DNA of 64,000 nt from Escherichia coli (lineage in GTDB: Bacteria; Pseudomonadota; Gammaproteobacteria; Enterobacterales; Enterobacteriaceae): the NCBI RefSeq assembly GCF_022846255.1, contig NZ_AP025682.1; one strand, written 5' to 3'. The position numbers were made by a program. Every line of letters starts with the position of its first letter. Position 1 is the stretch's first letter. Of the stretch, positions 11,364-26,300 are shown piece after piece.

Positions 11364-14300
11364 TTATCGCGTCCCATCAGAGAATTATAAAAATTGCTAA
11401 AATGCTAAACCGGTTTAGGAGTTGATAATAAAGCTGACTTTTTAGCCAGAGCAATTATTTTCACTAAACCGATTTAGTAAATGTGACAGGCACGACAAAT
11501 CGGGTTACAGATACAACAGCAGGATCACTATTGTGAAGGGAGATCGTGTTGTCGGGGTAAGGCGGTCATCGCGCCTTTAGCCGTGGTCGCCAGAGCACCA
11601 CAAATCTGAGCTTGTGCAATGATTCGTTCAAGCTGTCTGGTATTTGTTGGTATTCCAGAATCAGCCAGACCGGCAAGTAATCCAGCGACAAAAGCATCTC
11701 CTGCCCCGGTCGTATCGACGACAGAAACAGGTTTGGCGGGATAGTGGATAAACTGCCCCTGAAAATACACAAGTACGCCATTTTTTCCTTGTGTAATAAG
11801 CAATAAAGTCAACGAATAACGTTGTACTAATGAATATGCGCCTTGCTGAACCTGGCTTTCGCCACTGATGAATAGCAACTCTTCTTCGGACAATTTAGCG
11901 ATATTCGCCAGCGAAAGCGCGCGATCAAGGTATTTTCTTAATAGCGCTTCACTCTGCCAGAGATCGCTGCGGATATTGGGATCAAAACTGATGTTTCCGC
12001 CAGCCTGACGTATTTTCTCCATAGCCAGAAATGCGGTACTTCGGGAAGGTTCTGCACTGAGCGCAATGGAACAAAGATGGAGCCATTCACCCGGCCCAAA
12101 TGTAGGAAGGTCATCAGGTTGTAAAAAAAGATCGGCACTTGGGCGTACCATAAAGGTAAAGTTTCTTTCTCCTTGCTCATCAAGTCCTACAGCCACAATT
12201 GAGGTGCGATGTTGAGGATCAAGAGACATATAACGTGTATCAACATTTTCTTTACTCAGTGTCTGATACATAAAGCGACCGAAAGGATCATCGCCAACTT
12301 TGCCAATAAAGGCACTTTCCCCCCCCAGCCTTGCGATACCGACTGCAACATTAGCAGGCGCCCCACCAGGACACTGTAGTAGTCTCCCCTGGCTTTCGGG
12401 TAATAAATCAACAACCGCATCACCGAGTACCCATACTCTTGTGCTCATAAAGGCTCCAATATACTAATTGCTAAACAAATTAAATCGGTTTAGCAATTAA
12501 AGCATAAACGCTGCTCAGGAGAGAACAATATTCAGCAGTGGTTACCCGGTATTTTGTAGTGGAAACGTGAATATGCCGGGATTAATCATCTACCCGGCAC
12601 TGTTTATCTCACTTACGCATTCGACCAGCTCTGGATCGAATCCGCATTCCCCAATTCCCCATGCATCACTTCATACGATTTTTTCAGGATCACATCAGTA
12701 TGTTTGGTTAGGTCTTTGAAAATGCCTTTATTCATCGCGTCGTAGCGTTTGGCATTGCTCTCAATCGGTATGAAGATATCTTTCACGCGAACCATTTTAT
12801 CGACAGCCTTTGTGTAATCCGGGTATAGCCCCAGACCTACCGCCGTATTGATCGCAGCCCCCAGACTTGCACAACCGTTAATGGCGTTTCGGCGTGTCGG
12901 AAGGTTGAACACGTCGGCAAAAATCTGCATAAACAGATCGCTGTTCGAACCGCCGCCAGTAATGATCACATGCTTTGCAAAGTGATTCATTTCATGACAC
13001 ATATTGTCGTAATTATTCTTCAGCGTCAGCGCCACGCTTTCCAGTATCGAACGATATATCCATGCGTAATCCATACTGGAATCAAAGCCGATCATAATTC
13101 CGCGTTTGTACGGTTCCCACGGATTGGTCAGCCAGTCCAGCACCGTCATCAGCCCATTACAACCAGGTGGCACGCAAGACGCTTTTTTGTTGAGCAAATC
13201 TTCCGGTGAAAGATCCTGTGCTTTGGCATCCTGAATTAACGACTCGCCTAACATGTCGCGCAGCCAGCTCACCGTCCACATGCCTTTGCGAATACCGTAA
13301 CCTTCATACAGCAATGTTTGCGGAATAGAAGACATAATCGGCCAGTACGCGACCGGATCTTTCGGCAGTGCTTTGCCGTTCATCATCAACGCGATATAGG
13401 TGCCAAGAGAAATTACCGCCGTTTCATCATCCAGTAACCCGGCTCCCAGAGCTTCTACCGGTTTATCACTGGTGGTACAAACAACCGGCAGCCCAGCCGG
13501 GAAATGTGTCGCCAGCGCAGCTTGTGGTGTGATATGCCCAAGAACAGTGCCCGGCATTTGCACGTCAAAAAGCATCTGGCGGGGGATATTAAACTTTTCC
13601 ATTACCGCGGCATCTTTGCTCCATGCCCAGCTCTTATAATCCACTGGCCACTGACCAAAATAGTTGGCGATATTGTCTTTAAACTCGCCGGTTAAGCGAT
13701 GTGTCAGATAACCCGAAAAAGAGGTGACATAGGCCACGTCAGGATTAGTGTGTTCGTAAGGGCGTGTAACGCGTGCATCCTGCCAGCTAATCAACGGCGC
13801 GGCTGGCGTACCATCGGCTTTCAATAGCGCACGGCAGCAACGGATTGAGCCCAGGCCAATGCCGACAATATCTTCTTTATTTCCGGCAAACTGGCTCATC
13901 AAATCGTGGCCGGCAAAGCATAATGATGCCCATAAATCGTCGTCAGGATGTTCTGCGGTATCGGCATCTGGCGTGTGCATCGGCTGCAATAAGCCTTTGC
14001 CTTCGCAAACCACATTACCTTCCAGATCGTACATCACCACTTTTGTGCTCTGACTTCCGCCATCAATCCCTATGATGTATTTTTTCGACATGATTTTTCT
14101 CCTGTAATTTTCCTGGCTTACTTGCTGCTAGCCATTGCGGGGGCGCTATCAGCAGTACGAATTTTTTGGAACAACAAAAAGGTAAAGACGATCACCATGG
14201 CGAGCGCTGCCATGCCCATCAGCCACATGTTGCGGTAGGCTTCAGCGGCAGGTAGGGTGTCTTGCCAGTAGCCGATAATCGGGTAAACGAAGACATCCGG

Positions 14301-23300: not shown

Positions 23301-26300
23301 GATAATAATAATGTCGCAGTCGTCTTCCATGTCATGCCCCAGATATCCAGAACACAACACCCTAACATAGCGTTACTTAAGGGAAATTGACCGCCGACAC
23401 ACTCTTATCATTCGCCGCGATAGATACAACCTGCGGTGCAGGTTTCTTTTACCATCACCGCACTTAACAGCGGCACAACGGGTTTAACCTGATCCCAAAT
23501 CCATTTTGCTAAAACTTCGCTGGTTGGGTTTTCCAGACCTGGAATATCATTGAGATAATGGTGATCGAGGCGCTCATAAGTTGGCTTAAACGCCGCTTTC
23601 AGTTCAGCGAAATCGATAATCCAGCCCGTATGCGGATCGACTTCCCCGGTAATTTCCAGTCGCACCATAAAGGAATGCCCGTGCAGGCGACCACATTTAT
23701 GCCCTTGTGGGACGTGCGGCAAGCGGTGAGCGGCTTCGAAGGTGAAATCTTTAAATAACGTGGTGGACATCATAATTTCTCTACAGGACGATAAAACCGC
23801 CGTAGAGTACCGGAAAGGCTGTTTTTTCGCATTATCTAAAACGGCTTTGTTGCGCAAAATCGCTGATTTATCTTAATGATTGGCTAAATTCATTTGTTTT
23901 TCATTGGGTTGGTTAATCTGTTTTGTTGTTAAAGACTATTGCTAAAACAGGTTAGTCGATTTGGTTATTAGTTATCGCTATCCCGTCTTTAATCCACACC
24001 GTTCACCCCGTTAACCTTACCTTCTCTTCTGTTTTATGGGCGCTGACAGGGCGCAGAAACAGCTTTGCTTACTGGAACATAACGACGCATGACGACACAG
24101 GTCCCACCTTCCGCGTTGCTTCCGTTGAACCCGGAGCAACTGGCACGCCTTCAGGCGGCCATGACCGATTTAACTCCCACCCAGCTTGCCTGGGTTTCTG
24201 GCTATTTCTGGGGCGTGCTCAACCAGCAGCCTGCTGCGCTTACAGCGACGCCAGCGCCCGCCCCCGCCGCAGAAATGCCGGGTATAACTATTATCTCCGC
24301 TTCGCAAACCGGCAATGCGCGCCGGGTTGCTGAAGCATTACGCGATGATTTATTAGCGGCAAAACTGAACGTTAAGCTGGTGAACGCGGGCGACTATAAA
24401 TTCAAACAAATCGCCAGCGAAAAACTGCTCATCGTGGTGACGTCAACGCAAGGGGAAGGGGAACCGCCGGAAGAAGCCGTCGCGCTGCATAAGTTCCTGT
24501 TCTCCAAAAAAGCGCCAAAGCTGGAAAACACTGCATTTGCCGTGTTTAGCCTCGGCGATAGCTCTTATGAATTTTTCTGCCAGTCCGGGAAAGATTTTGA
24601 CAGCAAGCTGGCGGAACTGGGCGGTGAACGCCTGCTCGACCGTGTCGATGCCGACGTTGAATACCAGGCTGCTGCCAGCGAGTGGCGCGCCCGCGTGGTT
24701 GATGCGCTTAAATCGCGTGCGCCTGTCGCGGCACCTTCGCAATCCGTCGCTACTGGCACGGTAAATGAAATCCACACCAGCCCGTATAGCAAAGACGCGC
24801 CGCTGGCGGCCAGCCTTTCGGTTAACCAGAAAATTACCGGGCGTAACTCTGAAAAAGACGTTCGTCACATTGAAATTGACTTAGGTGACTCTGGCCTGCG
24901 TTACCAGCCGGGTGACGCGTTGGGCGTCTGGTATCAGAACGATCCGGCACTGGTGAAAGAACTTGTCGAACTGCTGTGGCTGAAAGGCGATGAACCTGTC
25001 ACCGTCGAGGGCAAAACGTTGCCTCTGAACGAAGCGCTACAGTGGCACTTCGAACTGACCGTCAACACCGTCAACATTGTTGAGAACTATGCCACGCTTA
25101 CCCGCAGCGAAACGCTGCTGCCGCTGGTGGGCGATAAAGCGAAGTTACAGCATTACGCCGCGACGACGCCGATTGTCGACATGGTGCGTTTCTCTCCGGC
25201 GCAACTGGATGCCGAAGCGCTGATTAATCTGCTGCGCCCGCTGACCCCGCGCCTGTATTCCATCGCCTCCTCGCAGGCGGAAGTCGAGAACGAAGTGCAC
25301 GTTACCGTTGGTGTGGTGCGTTACGACGTGGAAGGCCGCGCCCGTGCCGGTGGTGCCTCCAGCTTCCTCGCAGAGCGTGTGGAAGAAGAGGGTGAAGTCC
25401 GCGTCTTTATCGAACATAACGACAACTTCCGCCTGCCAACCAATCCGGAAACCCCGGTGATCATGATTGGCCCTGGCACCGGCATCGCGCCGTTCCGTGC
25501 CTTTATGCAGCAGCGTGCTGCCGACGAAGCGCCGGGTAAAAACTGGCTATTCTTTGGCAACCCACACTTTACGGAAGATTTCCTCTACCAGGTGGAATGG
25601 CAGCGTTACGTCAAAGAAGGCGTGCTGACGCGCATCGATCTCGCCTGGTCGCGCGATCAAAAAGAAAAAATTTACGTACAAGACAAACTGCGCGAACAGG
25701 GCGCAGAGCTGTGGCGCTGGATCAATGACGGTGCCCACATTTATGTCTGCGGCGACGCTAATCGCATGGCGAAAGACGTTGAGCAGGCACTTCTGGAAGT
25801 GATTGCCGAATTTGGTGGCATGGACACCGAAGCGGCGGATGAATTTTTAAGTGAGCTGCGCGTAGAGCGCCGTTATCAGCGAGATGTCTACTAATGAGCG
25901 AAAAACATCCAGGGCCTTTAGTGGTCGAAGGAAAACTGACAGACGCCGAGCGCATGAAGCTTGAAAGCAACTACCTGCGCGGCACCATTGCGGAAGATTT
26001 AAACGACGGTCTGACCGGCGGCTTTAAGGGCGATAACTTCCTGCTGATCCGCTTCCACGGCATGTATCAGCAGGATGACCGCGACATTCGCGCCGAACGT
26101 GCTGAACAGAAGCTGGAGCCGCGCCACGCGATGCTGCTTCGCTGTCGTCTGCCGGGTGGGGTGATTACCACTAAACAGTGGCAGGCGATCGACAAATTTG
26201 CCGGTGAAAACACCATCTATGGCAGCATTCGCCTGACCAACCGCCAGACATTCCAGTTCCACGGCATTCTGAAAAAGAACGTCAAACCGGTGCACCAGAT

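Follow-up and report, generated by a model that had tools for sequence, protein, structure and literature searches.

The ygc cluster of Escherichia coli as a proposed catabolic regulon with candidate antiterminator leader RNAs and a flavoenzyme resembling alkyl-dihydroxyacetone phosphate synthase

The ygc cluster of Escherichia coli is a known block of uncharacterised genes, which is studied here in a stretch of 64,000 nucleotides from contig NZ_AP025682.1 (assembly GCF_022846255.1), called the window throughout. Several described systems resemble parts of it. Alkyl-dihydroxyacetone phosphate synthase (ADPS, also AGPS), at the entry of the eukaryotic ether-lipid pathway, is a non-redox enzyme in which Arg419, Tyr578, and His615-617 have catalytic roles. 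Dedicated electron-transfer flavoproteins (ETFs) normally mark true dehydrogenases, and the Fix proteins support carnitine reduction beside the BCCT antiporter CaiT. In Bacillus subtilis, GlpP together with glycerol-3-phosphate activates glpD, glpFK, and glpTQ past promoter-proximal terminators (PMC9604022). When folded, the glpD 5' untranslated region (sequence from Table S4 of PMC9604022) forms a terminator of -44.9 kcal/mol, and the 5' arm of this terminator also lies in a weak upstream hairpin, GGUC...GACC, closing a GAG-rich loop.

The best explanation that we can propose for the ygc genes is a single regulon of three transcription units, devoted to the catabolism of a small compound. CRP with cyclic AMP would activate two divergent promoters in the spacer between ygcW and yqcE, and each transcript would open with a leader of about 70 nt that folds by default into a strong intrinsic terminator. 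The protein YgcP, loaded with a phosphorylated intermediate of the pathway, would attach to a weak upstream helix whose loop is GAG-rich; as this helix shares a strand with the terminator, binding would permit RNA polymerase to read through into the enzyme genes. We give the whole model, comprising CRP control, antitermination by YgcP, a route through substituted dihydroxyacetone phosphate (DHAP), and an ETF, a probability of roughly 40%. What is new here is the core shared across phyla, the ADPS-type active site of YgcU, and the leader RNA paired with a GlpP-family protein.

Both divergent operons are preceded by a leader RNA. The ygcWUSRQ leader (15619..15695, plus strand; 78.4 bits with our covariance model R1) lies between the promoter region and the start codon at 15714. 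Within it are a putative antiterminator helix, P1 (15625-15631 pairing with 15647-15653), and, as found by a terminator scan, an intrinsic terminator whose hairpin at 15641-15682, a perfect 19-bp stem, is followed by nine T to 15689. The yqcE-ygcE leader (15415..15488, minus strand; 70.1 bits, E 3e-11) has its upstream helix at 15476-15481 with 15456-15461 and its intrinsic terminator, including the U-run, at 15420-15467. The ygcW leader folds at -37.5 kcal/mol, with a z of -6.7 against shuffles, and P1 alone gives -6.7 kcal/mol; the values for yqcE are -22.3 kcal/mol and a z of -3.9, with -1.4 kcal/mol for the upstream helix alone. Because the terminators dominate thermodynamically, the default state would be OFF, and a factor would be needed to stabilize the upstream helix. 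An open reading frame (ORF) of 286 aa at 15639-16499, which reads through the leader terminator, was rejected as an artefact, being an over-extended ygcW.

The conservation of these leaders supports two competing folds. From the upstream regions of all loci collected for this study, a shared motif emerged, RRTTACY-AGAG-N3-5-GAGAAAAGTAACTTCC-loop-GGAAGT-N-GCTTTTCTC-U-run, which occurs in Enterobacterales, Photobacterium, Bacilli, Clostridia, and Negativicutes, Saccharopolyspora being added by the covariance model. In alignment A2, with 68 leaders from four phyla, the terminator is predicted by RNAalifold and shows double compensatory changes in 12 of its 17 pairs. The 7-bp upstream helix, where RRTTACY pairs with RGTAAYY within the 5' arm of the terminator, is 93% paired and beats all slid controls by far. 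Its pair 8-38 is GC in 51 leaders and AU in 17, with none broken, and its pair 16-33 is UA in 41 and CG in 12. Column 33 covaries with column 16 and, within the terminator, with column 69 (AU in 55, GC in 13), its two alternative partners, which argues for two mutually exclusive structures. A scan of the spacer against Rfam (Rfam 15) at permissive thresholds returned chance-level matches only, far under the gathering scores, and this conserved leader with its covariation is apparently undescribed. With model R1, the 64-kb window yields exactly two genuine copies, one before each operon, and the 84 sources yield 128 matches; where the contig of an enterobacterial locus includes the intergenic region, there are mostly two matches. 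In three Clostridia loci, a second copy sits inside the operon, in the gap between the FGGY kinase gene and the ygcU orthologue (L063 9846-9916; L065 9824-9917; L068 8711-8802), so that expression of YgcU and the ETF there would be gated apart from that of the first two enzymes.

The proposed antiterminator for both leaders is YgcP (21216..21791, minus strand), a member of the GlpP family (G3P_antiterm). It matches PF04309 over the full length of the model (210 bits, positions 1-173 of 173), and its relatives in the PDB are 3kts (100 bits) and 1vkf. Outside Enterobacterales, the leader is found in all 17 loci that have a GlpP-family gene, including two actinomycete loci, and in the enterobacterial set the YgcP gene is present in 41 of 46 loci. 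The loci of Desulfobacterales have neither leader nor GlpP; they carry sigma-54-type promoters and sigma-54 activators. From this co-occurrence and by analogy with GlpP, it appears quite likely that the ygc leaders are YgcP-responsive antiterminator/terminator switches, and, to our knowledge, this would be the first GlpP-type antitermination described in a Gram-negative bacterium. An earlier reading of the window, made from the sequence alone and called here the sequence-only reading, had listed ygcP correctly but left it uninterpreted, and had missed the two leader RNAs and the two CRP sites.

These CRP sites lie in the ygcW-yqcE spacer of 318 bp, neither being assigned to a strand. Site 1, TGTGAGAGTAATCACG (15517..15532), is a CRP-like site read from the sequence, proximal to the yqcE promoter and conserved in Enterobacterales; site 2, TGTGATTACGATCACA (15574..15589), is proximal to the ygcW promoter. 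Exactly site 2 is found under a CRP peak of chromatin immunoprecipitation sequencing in enterotoxigenic E. coli (PMC4287617), binds in vitro with a dissociation constant of about 1.7 nM (PMC12871828), and was predicted by PhyloScan (PMC1794230). Between the centre of each site and the initial base of one leader motif there are about 41.5 nt, a spacing that would fit class II CRP promoters, site 1 being tentatively assigned to that of yqcE. A transcriptome study found yqcE-ygcE to be activated by CRP (PMC8085971), and genomic systematic evolution of ligands by exponential enrichment (Genomic SELEX) placed both the RpoD holoenzyme and H-NS on the spacer (PMC3946193). Dependence on CRP, H-NS, and two default-OFF terminators would together make the cluster appear cryptic.

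The cluster itself is complete. The ORF list agrees with the RefSeq annotation of the E. coli chromosome that matches best (98.8% identity over 12 kb) on ten intact ORFs in 12613-23330; all ten lengths equal the annotated ones, and none is frameshifted or interrupted. The gene inventory of the sequence-only reading (ygcE, yqcE, ygcW, ygcU, ygcS, ygcR, ygcQ, ygcP, ygcO, and ygcN) is correct. The transcription units are yqcE-ygcE (minus strand, 15395 to 12613), ygcW-ygcU-ygcS-ygcR-ygcQ (plus strand, 15714 to 21068), and ygcN-ygcO-ygcP (minus strand, 23330 to 21216). Counting the cluster as present where at least 80% of a 12-kb query was covered, 5057 of 5426 complete E. coli genomes (93%) have it. 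Purifying selection acts on all ten genes in comparison with Citrobacter, where the ratio of nonsynonymous to synonymous substitution rates (dN/dS) runs from 0.007 to 0.13, a rough measure as dS is saturated. The lowest value belongs to ygcP (0.007), followed by ygcW (0.013), ygcU (0.022), ygcE (0.031), yqcE (0.042), and ygcS (0.046), with ygcO, ygcR, ygcN, and ygcQ at 0.10-0.13. Amino-acid identity to Citrobacter is 89-96% for ygcP, ygcW, ygcU, and ygcE and 63-77% for ygcR, ygcQ, ygcO, and ygcN. The genes are therefore not pseudogenes, and the pseudogenisation that the sequence-only reading had allowed for did not turn up. Its statement that the substrate is not established also holds, as a literature search under all ten gene names found no substrate assigned to any of them.

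The ygc cluster is the enterobacterial version of a wider core, made of a short-chain dehydrogenase/reductase (SDR), an FGGY kinase, YgcU, an ETF, and the GlpP-like YgcP. A total of 80 genome loci were fetched, their ORFs were clustered, and gene presence was re-scored with tblastn. The core recurs in Firmicutes, Actinobacteria, and Desulfobacterota, and YgcU orthologues of 65-73% identity occur in Sporomusa, Clostridia, halophilic Bacilli, Saccharopolyspora, Desulfobacterales, SAR324, and Photobacterium. Among the 37 non-enterobacterial loci, the YgcU orthologue is present in all, the YgcW-type SDR in 34, the FGGY kinase (YgcE orthologue) in 28, EtfB in 25, and EtfA in 26. In these 25-26 loci, the ETF genes directly follow the ygcU orthologue, and they do so even where a second oxidase is lacking. 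A GlpP-family gene is present in 17 of these loci, a second, GlcD-like oxidase in 16, a BCCT transporter in 14, and the binding protein of an OpuC/OsmF-type ATP-binding cassette (ABC) transporter in seven; YgcN, YgcO, or YgcS is present in none, these being confined to Enterobacterales. Two loci with enterobacterial gene order were dropped as probable contamination, namely a 'Planctomycetota bacterium' (L005, 99% identical to E. coli ygcU and ygcS) and a 'Chryseobacterium sp.' (L028, 88% identical).

The transporters of these loci bear on the substrate. When loci of at least 13 kb are considered, 19 of the 24 outside Enterobacterales carry a BCCT or OpuC-type transporter. The leader directly precedes BCCT genes in L003, L064, L065, and L068, and OpuC-type ABC operons in L074 and, together with an MttB-like methyltransferase, in L075; these betaine-type transporters are thus co-regulated with the core and not merely its neighbours. 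It likewise directly precedes genes for YqcE-like major facilitator superfamily (MFS) transporters in Enterobacterales, Photobacterium (L004), a rumen Eubacterium (L082), and Saccharopolyspora (L079). Given how well the enzymes are conserved, the compound that E. coli imports by its MFS proteins is probably the same one or closely similar. The operon of halophilic Bacilli consists of GlpP, SDR, FGGY kinase, YgcU, and a BCCT transporter only, and three enzymes must therefore suffice there to reach central metabolism. Aerobic Bacilli, Saccharopolyspora, Pantoea/Erwinia, and SAR324 have operons without the ETF. In Erwinia, Pantoea, and Serratia proteamaculans, genes for an aldo-keto reductase and a formaldehyde-activating enzyme (Fae) homologue are found in place of the ETF and FixCX-like genes. 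This ETF-less variant was seen in L034, L035, L039, L045, L048, L049, and the SAR324 locus L050; its reductase belongs to the L-glyceraldehyde-3-phosphate/methylglyoxal-reductase type, and with TIGR03126, whose cut-off is 118 bits, the Fae homologue reaches 134.9. Erwinia and Pantoea, two of the organisms with this Fae homologue, are not known to us to make tetrahydromethanopterin. In several anaerobes, there are additional genes for MttB-family methyltransferases, corrinoid proteins, or a glycerol dehydrogenase.

The constant member of the core, YgcU (16569..18023, plus strand, 484 aa), is a flavoprotein that binds flavin adenine dinucleotide (FAD) and resembles ADPS. In a PDB search its closest solved relatives are ADPS, at 142 bits, against 94 for glycolate oxidase/D-lactate dehydrogenase and 82 for LctD. 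The domains PF01565 and PF02913 (FAD_binding_4 and FAD-oxidase_C) are precomputed for P0001, the representative of its cluster at 99% identity. By HMMER alignment, R262, Y398, and H438-H440 of YgcU correspond to R419, Y578, and H615-617 of ADPS in guinea-pig numbering, and all are invariant in alignment A1 of eleven YgcU orthologues from several phyla. R419 and Y578 are experimentally probed residues of ADPS, since PDB entries 4bc7 and 4bca are, by their titles, its Arg419His and Tyr578Phe mutants. The GlcD-type motif FGHxxDGNxH...EHGxG is absent from YgcU, which has GGHSSHSY and HHHGIG instead and reaches 144 bits with the GlcD model, where the cut-off is 568. A GlcD-like paralogue (f16), the second FAD_binding_4 protein, which is encoded two genes downstream of YgcU in many anaerobes, has FGHxxDxHxHVN and EHGVGK and is without the ADPS-type Arg and the Tyr-bearing insert. 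An AlphaFold2 model of YgcU from the 11-sequence alignment was poor, with a predicted local distance difference test (pLDDT) score of 65.6, which made pocket analysis impossible; with this poor model, the top match in Foldseek was ADPS (4bby, E 8e-27).

The sequence-only reading had called YgcU a FAD oxidase. A flavoprotein it is, but not a generic 2-hydroxyacid oxidase, being ADPS-like and without the His/His/Glu motif of GlcD and LctD. Its resemblance to ADPS points to a substituted DHAP rather than to a sugar acid. A literature search for bacterial ADPS-like enzymes with FGGY, BCCT, or GlpP gave nothing relevant, and ygcU of enterohaemorrhagic E. coli is mildly induced by D-serine (PMC13012123).

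Downstream of ygcU and ygcS, ygcR (19432..20211, plus strand) encodes a putative, very divergent ETF beta subunit of 259 aa, with about 40 bits to ETF-beta models and PDB chains, and ygcQ (20208..21068, plus strand) encodes a putative, divergent ETF alpha subunit of 286 aa, with NCBIfam matches under the cut-offs. YgcQ reaches 83 bits with residues 94-307 of human ETF-alpha, the C-terminal FAD domain, and keeps the SRA..VG..G..APE..GxSGA segment, with the Gln-His replaced. Both subunits miss all NCBIfam cut-offs for ETF. On the minus strand, ygcN (22059..23330, 423 aa) encodes a FixC/YdiS-like FAD-dependent oxidoreductase, a putative ETF:quinone oxidoreductase, which falls below its cut-offs (PRK10015, 380 against 466 bits; FixC, 362 against 610), and ygcO (21808..22068, 86 aa) encodes a FixX-like protein of the ferredoxin family (FixX model, 83 bits against a cut-off of 166). 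A 122-aa ORF at 21808-22176 was rejected as an over-extended ygcO, and the 'ygcO' that appears in a review of the nitrogen phosphotransferase system (PTS-Ntr) is a misprint for ycgO.

A candidate ETF alpha/beta pair and a FixC/FixX-like pair are present, as had been noticed from the sequence. The sequence-only reading had combined them with sugar or polyol enzymes into a path from an ETF to quinone; this holds only in part, as the core goes elsewhere with betaine-type transporters. The genes ygcN and ygcO adjoin ygcRQ in Enterobacterales only, and because YgcN, YgcO, and YgcS are all restricted to that order, the quinone link would be a lineage-specific add-on to an older core. For E. coli itself, we favor an ETF-to-quinone electron route as somewhat more probable than its absence. 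The YgcU step is taken to be oxidative because it is so tightly linked to a dedicated ETF.

The remaining enzymes and transporters say less about the substrate. YgcE (12613..14091, minus strand) is identified by its ORF and profile matches as an FGGY-family carbohydrate kinase of 492 aa; its NCBIfam matches to xylulokinase, LsrK, and glycerol kinase are all far under the equivalog cut-offs, and its best PDB match is autoinducer-2 (AI-2) kinase, followed by glycerol kinases, so that its subfamily is not clear. YgcW (15714..16499, plus strand, 261 aa) is a classical SDR near KduD and gluconate 5-dehydrogenase. The enzymes of this group oxidize the penultimate CHOH of a terminal -CHOH-CH2OH. YgcW misses the KduD equivalog cut-offs (NF005390, 347.9 against 369 bits; TIGR01832, 274 against 339), and its orthologues outside Enterobacterales are 65-71% identical. 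YqcE (14118..15395, minus strand, 425 aa) is an MFS transporter with a weak match to the D-galactonate/ACS subfamily. YgcS (18045..19454, plus strand) is an MFS transporter of the Sugar_tr type by Pfam, which stays below the NCBIfam cut-off for the aromatic-acid, sugar-porter, and organic-cation subfamilies. No ygc enzyme reaches an NCBIfam equivalog cut-off, and therefore no substrate can be transferred by homology. YgcS is a distant homologue of NiaP, and its overexpression gave a higher titre of nicotinamide mononucleotide (PMC8601175). A GC-rich hairpin, CGGCTTCTCAGGCGAGAAGCCG, lies at 18065-18086, after the annotated ygcS start at 18045, and an in-frame ATG at 18117 opens MNTSPV; the true start of ygcS is probably 18117, which would place the hairpin between the cistrons ygcU and ygcS.

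A chemical route can be proposed from these parts. The substrate would be a glycerol-like diol that bears a substituent, X, at C1 and enters through YqcE and/or YgcS. YgcE would phosphorylate the free primary hydroxyl, and YgcW would oxidize the adjacent secondary hydroxyl at C2, in either order, to yield a 1-X-dihydroxyacetone phosphate. YgcU would then attack C1 through a flavin adduct, break the C1-X bond, and free a triose phosphate for glycolysis. If the YgcU step is oxidative, the electrons would pass to the ETF YgcRQ and, in Enterobacterales, to the FixCX-like YgcNO and quinone. Substituted-DHAP chemistry, as read from these protein families, remains a tentative proposal that falls somewhat short of an even chance. 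X probably carries a quaternary ammonium group, since the enzymes are co-regulated elsewhere with transporters of the betaine/choline/carnitine type; a substrate of this kind fits the co-regulation with BCCT and OpuC better than a plain polyol.

As a speculation, the most attractive candidate substrates could be betaine-lipid head groups after deacylation, namely glyceryl-trimethylhomoserine and the head groups of diacylglyceryl-hydroxymethyltrimethylalanine (DGTA) and diacylglyceryl-carboxyhydroxymethylcholine (DGCC), which are ether-linked quaternary amines. Betaine lipids are abundant in algae, fungi, and phosphate-starved bacteria. Such head groups would explain the betaine-type transporters, the unusual bond-breaking chemistry, and the extra enzymes of one Alkalihalobacillus operon, which are a lyase resembling aspartase, an aldehyde dehydrogenase, and a Zn-alcohol dehydrogenase. 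These could convert the released homoserine betaine to fumarate and trimethylamine. The MttB-type methyltransferases and corrinoid proteins of anaerobes are a further hint in this direction. That the module cleaves the bond, otherwise inert, between glycerol C1 and a polar substituent, as the ether-lipid entry steps run backwards, acts on betaine-lipid head groups, and is under a new GlpP-dependent leader class common to E. coli, Firmicutes, and Actinobacteria is a doubtful conjunction, to which we give small odds. No paper on bacterial catabolism of betaine-lipid head groups was found in the literature searched. Two other candidates were down-weighted, namely glycerophosphocholine, which is readily split by ordinary phosphodiesterases, and 2,3-dihydroxypropyl-trimethylammonium, for which no natural occurrence is known to us.

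Several points weigh against the model as a whole. YgcU is missing the N-terminal ~200 residues of ADPS, as the alignments begin at about ADPS 193-215 of 658, and with its 484 aa it does not show the N-terminal domain and the hydrophobic tunnel for fatty alcohol or acyl chains. It also has an invariant GGHSSHS segment, absent from ADPS, which could form a different, possibly metal-binding, site. With the poor model, the Foldseek scores of ADPS and of D-lactate dehydrogenases are nearly equal. As ADPS is non-redox and YgcU is linked to an ETF, the mechanism of YgcU can be no simple copy of that of ADPS. Against Citrobacter, evolution of the ETF and FixCX-like proteins is 5-10 times faster than that of the core enzymes, and the ETF is absent from aerobic relatives, so that the electron route may be dispensable or different. 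The E. coli cluster has no BCCT gene, and its MFS proteins give no clear substrate class. The binding of YgcP to the leaders, and the ligand of YgcP, are inferred from co-occurrence and from the analogy with B. subtilis GlpP. In the literature searched, no experiment tying any ygc gene to a substrate was found, and in the only study found a ygcU deletion had no phenotype (PMC13012123).

Other explanations draw on the same evidence. The cluster may serve ordinary catabolism of a sugar, polyol, or sugar acid, with YgcU as a GlcD/LctD-type dehydrogenase of a 2-hydroxyacid or polyol phosphate that passes electrons through the ETF and YgcNO to quinone. The family matches of the kinase, the KduD-like SDR, and the MFS proteins would suit this, YqcE having D-galactonate/ACS as its best subfamily; CRP control is typical of sugar operons, the solved LctBCD complex (7qh2) is a precedent for an ETF with a GlcD-like enzyme, and D-lactate dehydrogenases score almost as ADPS does in Foldseek. 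We nevertheless consider it unlikely, given that YgcU lacks the FGHxxDGNxH and EHG motifs which its neighbouring GlcD-like paralogue keeps, and has the Arg, Tyr, and HHH of ADPS in their stead; moreover, the core is co-regulated elsewhere with BCCT and OpuC-type betaine transporters, not sugar transporters, and no enzyme reaches an NCBIfam equivalog cut-off. The conserved ADPS residues lead to another account of the YgcU step, in which the enzyme works as an ADPS in reverse or with water, and exchanges the C1 substituent or removes it by hydrolysis, without net transfer of electrons. The only role of the ETF and FixCX-like proteins would then be to keep the flavin oxidized under anaerobic conditions, or to serve another enzyme, in line with their 5-10 times weaker constraint and with the ETF-less operons of aerobic Bacilli, Saccharopolyspora, Pantoea/Erwinia, and SAR324. 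Against this stand the ETF genes, which in most anaerobic and facultative lineages come directly after the ygcU orthologue, whether or not there is a second oxidase, together with the established link of dedicated ETFs to true dehydrogenases; it is a serious rival to an oxidative YgcU step, of which we nonetheless think poorly as the full answer.

The electrons could also flow the other way, from quinol or NADH through YgcNO and YgcRQ to YgcU, which would reduce a compound of the quaternary-amine type as an anaerobic electron sink, like the cai/fix route. YgcN, YgcO, YgcQ, and YgcR are paralogues of FixC, FixX, FixB, and FixA, and BCCT transporters accompany the module elsewhere, but a kinase and a dehydrogenase of the NAD type are constant partners, activation by CRP suits carbon catabolism, and aerobic halophilic Bacilli and actinomycetes have the core without any ETF, all of which makes a reductive route improbable. 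Lastly, the cluster could be an evolutionary leftover in E. coli, silenced by H-NS and by leader terminators, whose natural inducer is never met. H-NS does occupy the ygcW/yqcE spacer by Genomic SELEX (PMC3946193), the default fold of both leaders is a terminator, and no phenotype was found in the literature searched. A leftover would, however, hardly be kept with intact ORFs in 93% of complete E. coli genomes, with dN/dS of 0.007-0.05 in its core genes, with one of the tightest CRP sites of the genome in its spacer, and with leaders maintained by compensatory changes across Enterobacterales, and we regard this explanation as very improbable. The proposed CRP- and YgcP-controlled regulon for a C1-substituted glycerol remains the one that we prefer.

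The scr genes (scrR, scrB, scrA, scrY, and a fructokinase-like gene) lie at 5970-12448, directly beside ygcE, and are present in only 987 of 5426 complete E. coli genomes, so that the placement of the cluster beside an acquired scr island by the sequence-only reading is borne out, 'acquired' being a fair word; no functional link between scr and ygc was detected. Compared with all complete E. coli genomes, the ygc segment (12000-24000) reaches at best 98.8% identity, the scr island (5950-12500) 99.6%, and the cys-mutS segment (27001-52000) 99.4%; the ygc allele of this strain is less well represented, or recombinant. Further along, about 28400-30250 aligns without gaps to strains with the order cysH, hok/gef gene, iap, cysD. 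Strain K-12 carries a type I-E CRISPR-Cas locus between iap and cysD, and the gapless alignment implies that this locus is absent here. The neighbouring ygbI-ygbN cluster, at about 42150-48150 (by homology to L085 15154-21153), is an acid-sugar cluster of the same region that was once cryptic as well and whose genes now have functions in the annotation, otnK as 3-oxo-tetronate kinase and ltnD as L-threonate dehydrogenase.

Among the gene blocks of E. coli K-12 still without a function, that of ygc is one of the larger ones, and testable handles on it are useful. The CRP sites, the leader terminators, and the GlpP-family protein recast the search for a substrate as a search for the signal that relieves the terminators. 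An ADPS-like enzyme acting on a substituted DHAP would narrow the substrate candidates to 1-substituted glycerols. If X is a quaternary amine, then in bacteria of the gut, the sea, and hypersaline sites the module would tie the turnover of lipid head groups or osmolytes to central carbon metabolism, and may release precursors of trimethylamine. If the substrate is an ordinary sugar, the cluster would be one more catabolic operon, and its leader RNA would keep its use as a new regulatory part.

Set beside the described systems, the regulatory half of the cluster is most like GlpP of B. subtilis. In both, a PF04309 regulator goes with a promoter-proximal intrinsic terminator at the controlled transcripts, a weak upstream hairpin with a GAG loop shares a strand with the 5' arm of the terminator, as in the glpD leader, and the regulated genes include an FGGY kinase and a FAD dehydrogenase for a phosphorylated C3-type compound. 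The ygc host, unlike B. subtilis, is Gram-negative and controls the promoters by CRP; the helix is RRTTACY/RGTAAYY instead of GGUC/GACC, the regulated enzymes are not GlpK and GlpD, and the gene of YgcP, whose RNA binding is putative, sits in a separate operon with FixCX-like genes. With eukaryotic ether-lipid entry, YgcU shares the FAD_binding_4/FAD-oxidase_C fold and the Arg, Tyr, and His-His-His residues of ADPS, and, as ADPS is accompanied by an SDR acyl/alkyl-DHAP reductase (DHRS7B, Ayr1), so an SDR is the constant partner of YgcU and may interconvert 1-substituted glycerol-3-phosphate and DHAP. The proposed ygc route would be this entry run backwards after a kinase step. YgcU differs from the 658-aa ADPS by the lack of the N-terminal membrane/fatty-alcohol domain and by its dedicated ETF; clusters of the ygc type accompany transporters of small polar molecules, not lipids, and YgcW is KduD-like and no orthologue of DHRS7B.

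The electron-transfer half recalls ETF-using enzymes of the GlcD family, among them LctBCD of Acetobacterium woodii, where a flavoenzyme of the vanillyl-alcohol oxidase (VAO)/GlcD superfamily stands beside its own EtfB and EtfA. LctD and LctC are among the PDB matches of YgcU and YgcQ (7qh2), and the ygc-type operon of anaerobes also has a GlcD-like enzyme and a second ETF with a ferredoxin domain. Unlike that family, YgcU is without the metal-binding His/His/Glu, and the E. coli ETF is shortened and very divergent. The caiTABCDE/fixABCX system of E. coli, which serves anaerobic carnitine metabolism, has, as ygc would, a FixABCX-like electron-transfer set beside genes for a substrate of the quaternary-amine type, and BCCT transporters stand beside the ygc-type core in other phyla. 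The ygc genes, in contrast, include no coenzyme A (CoA) transferase, CoA ligase, or acyl-CoA dehydrogenase, and have a kinase, an SDR, and an ADPS-like enzyme in their place.

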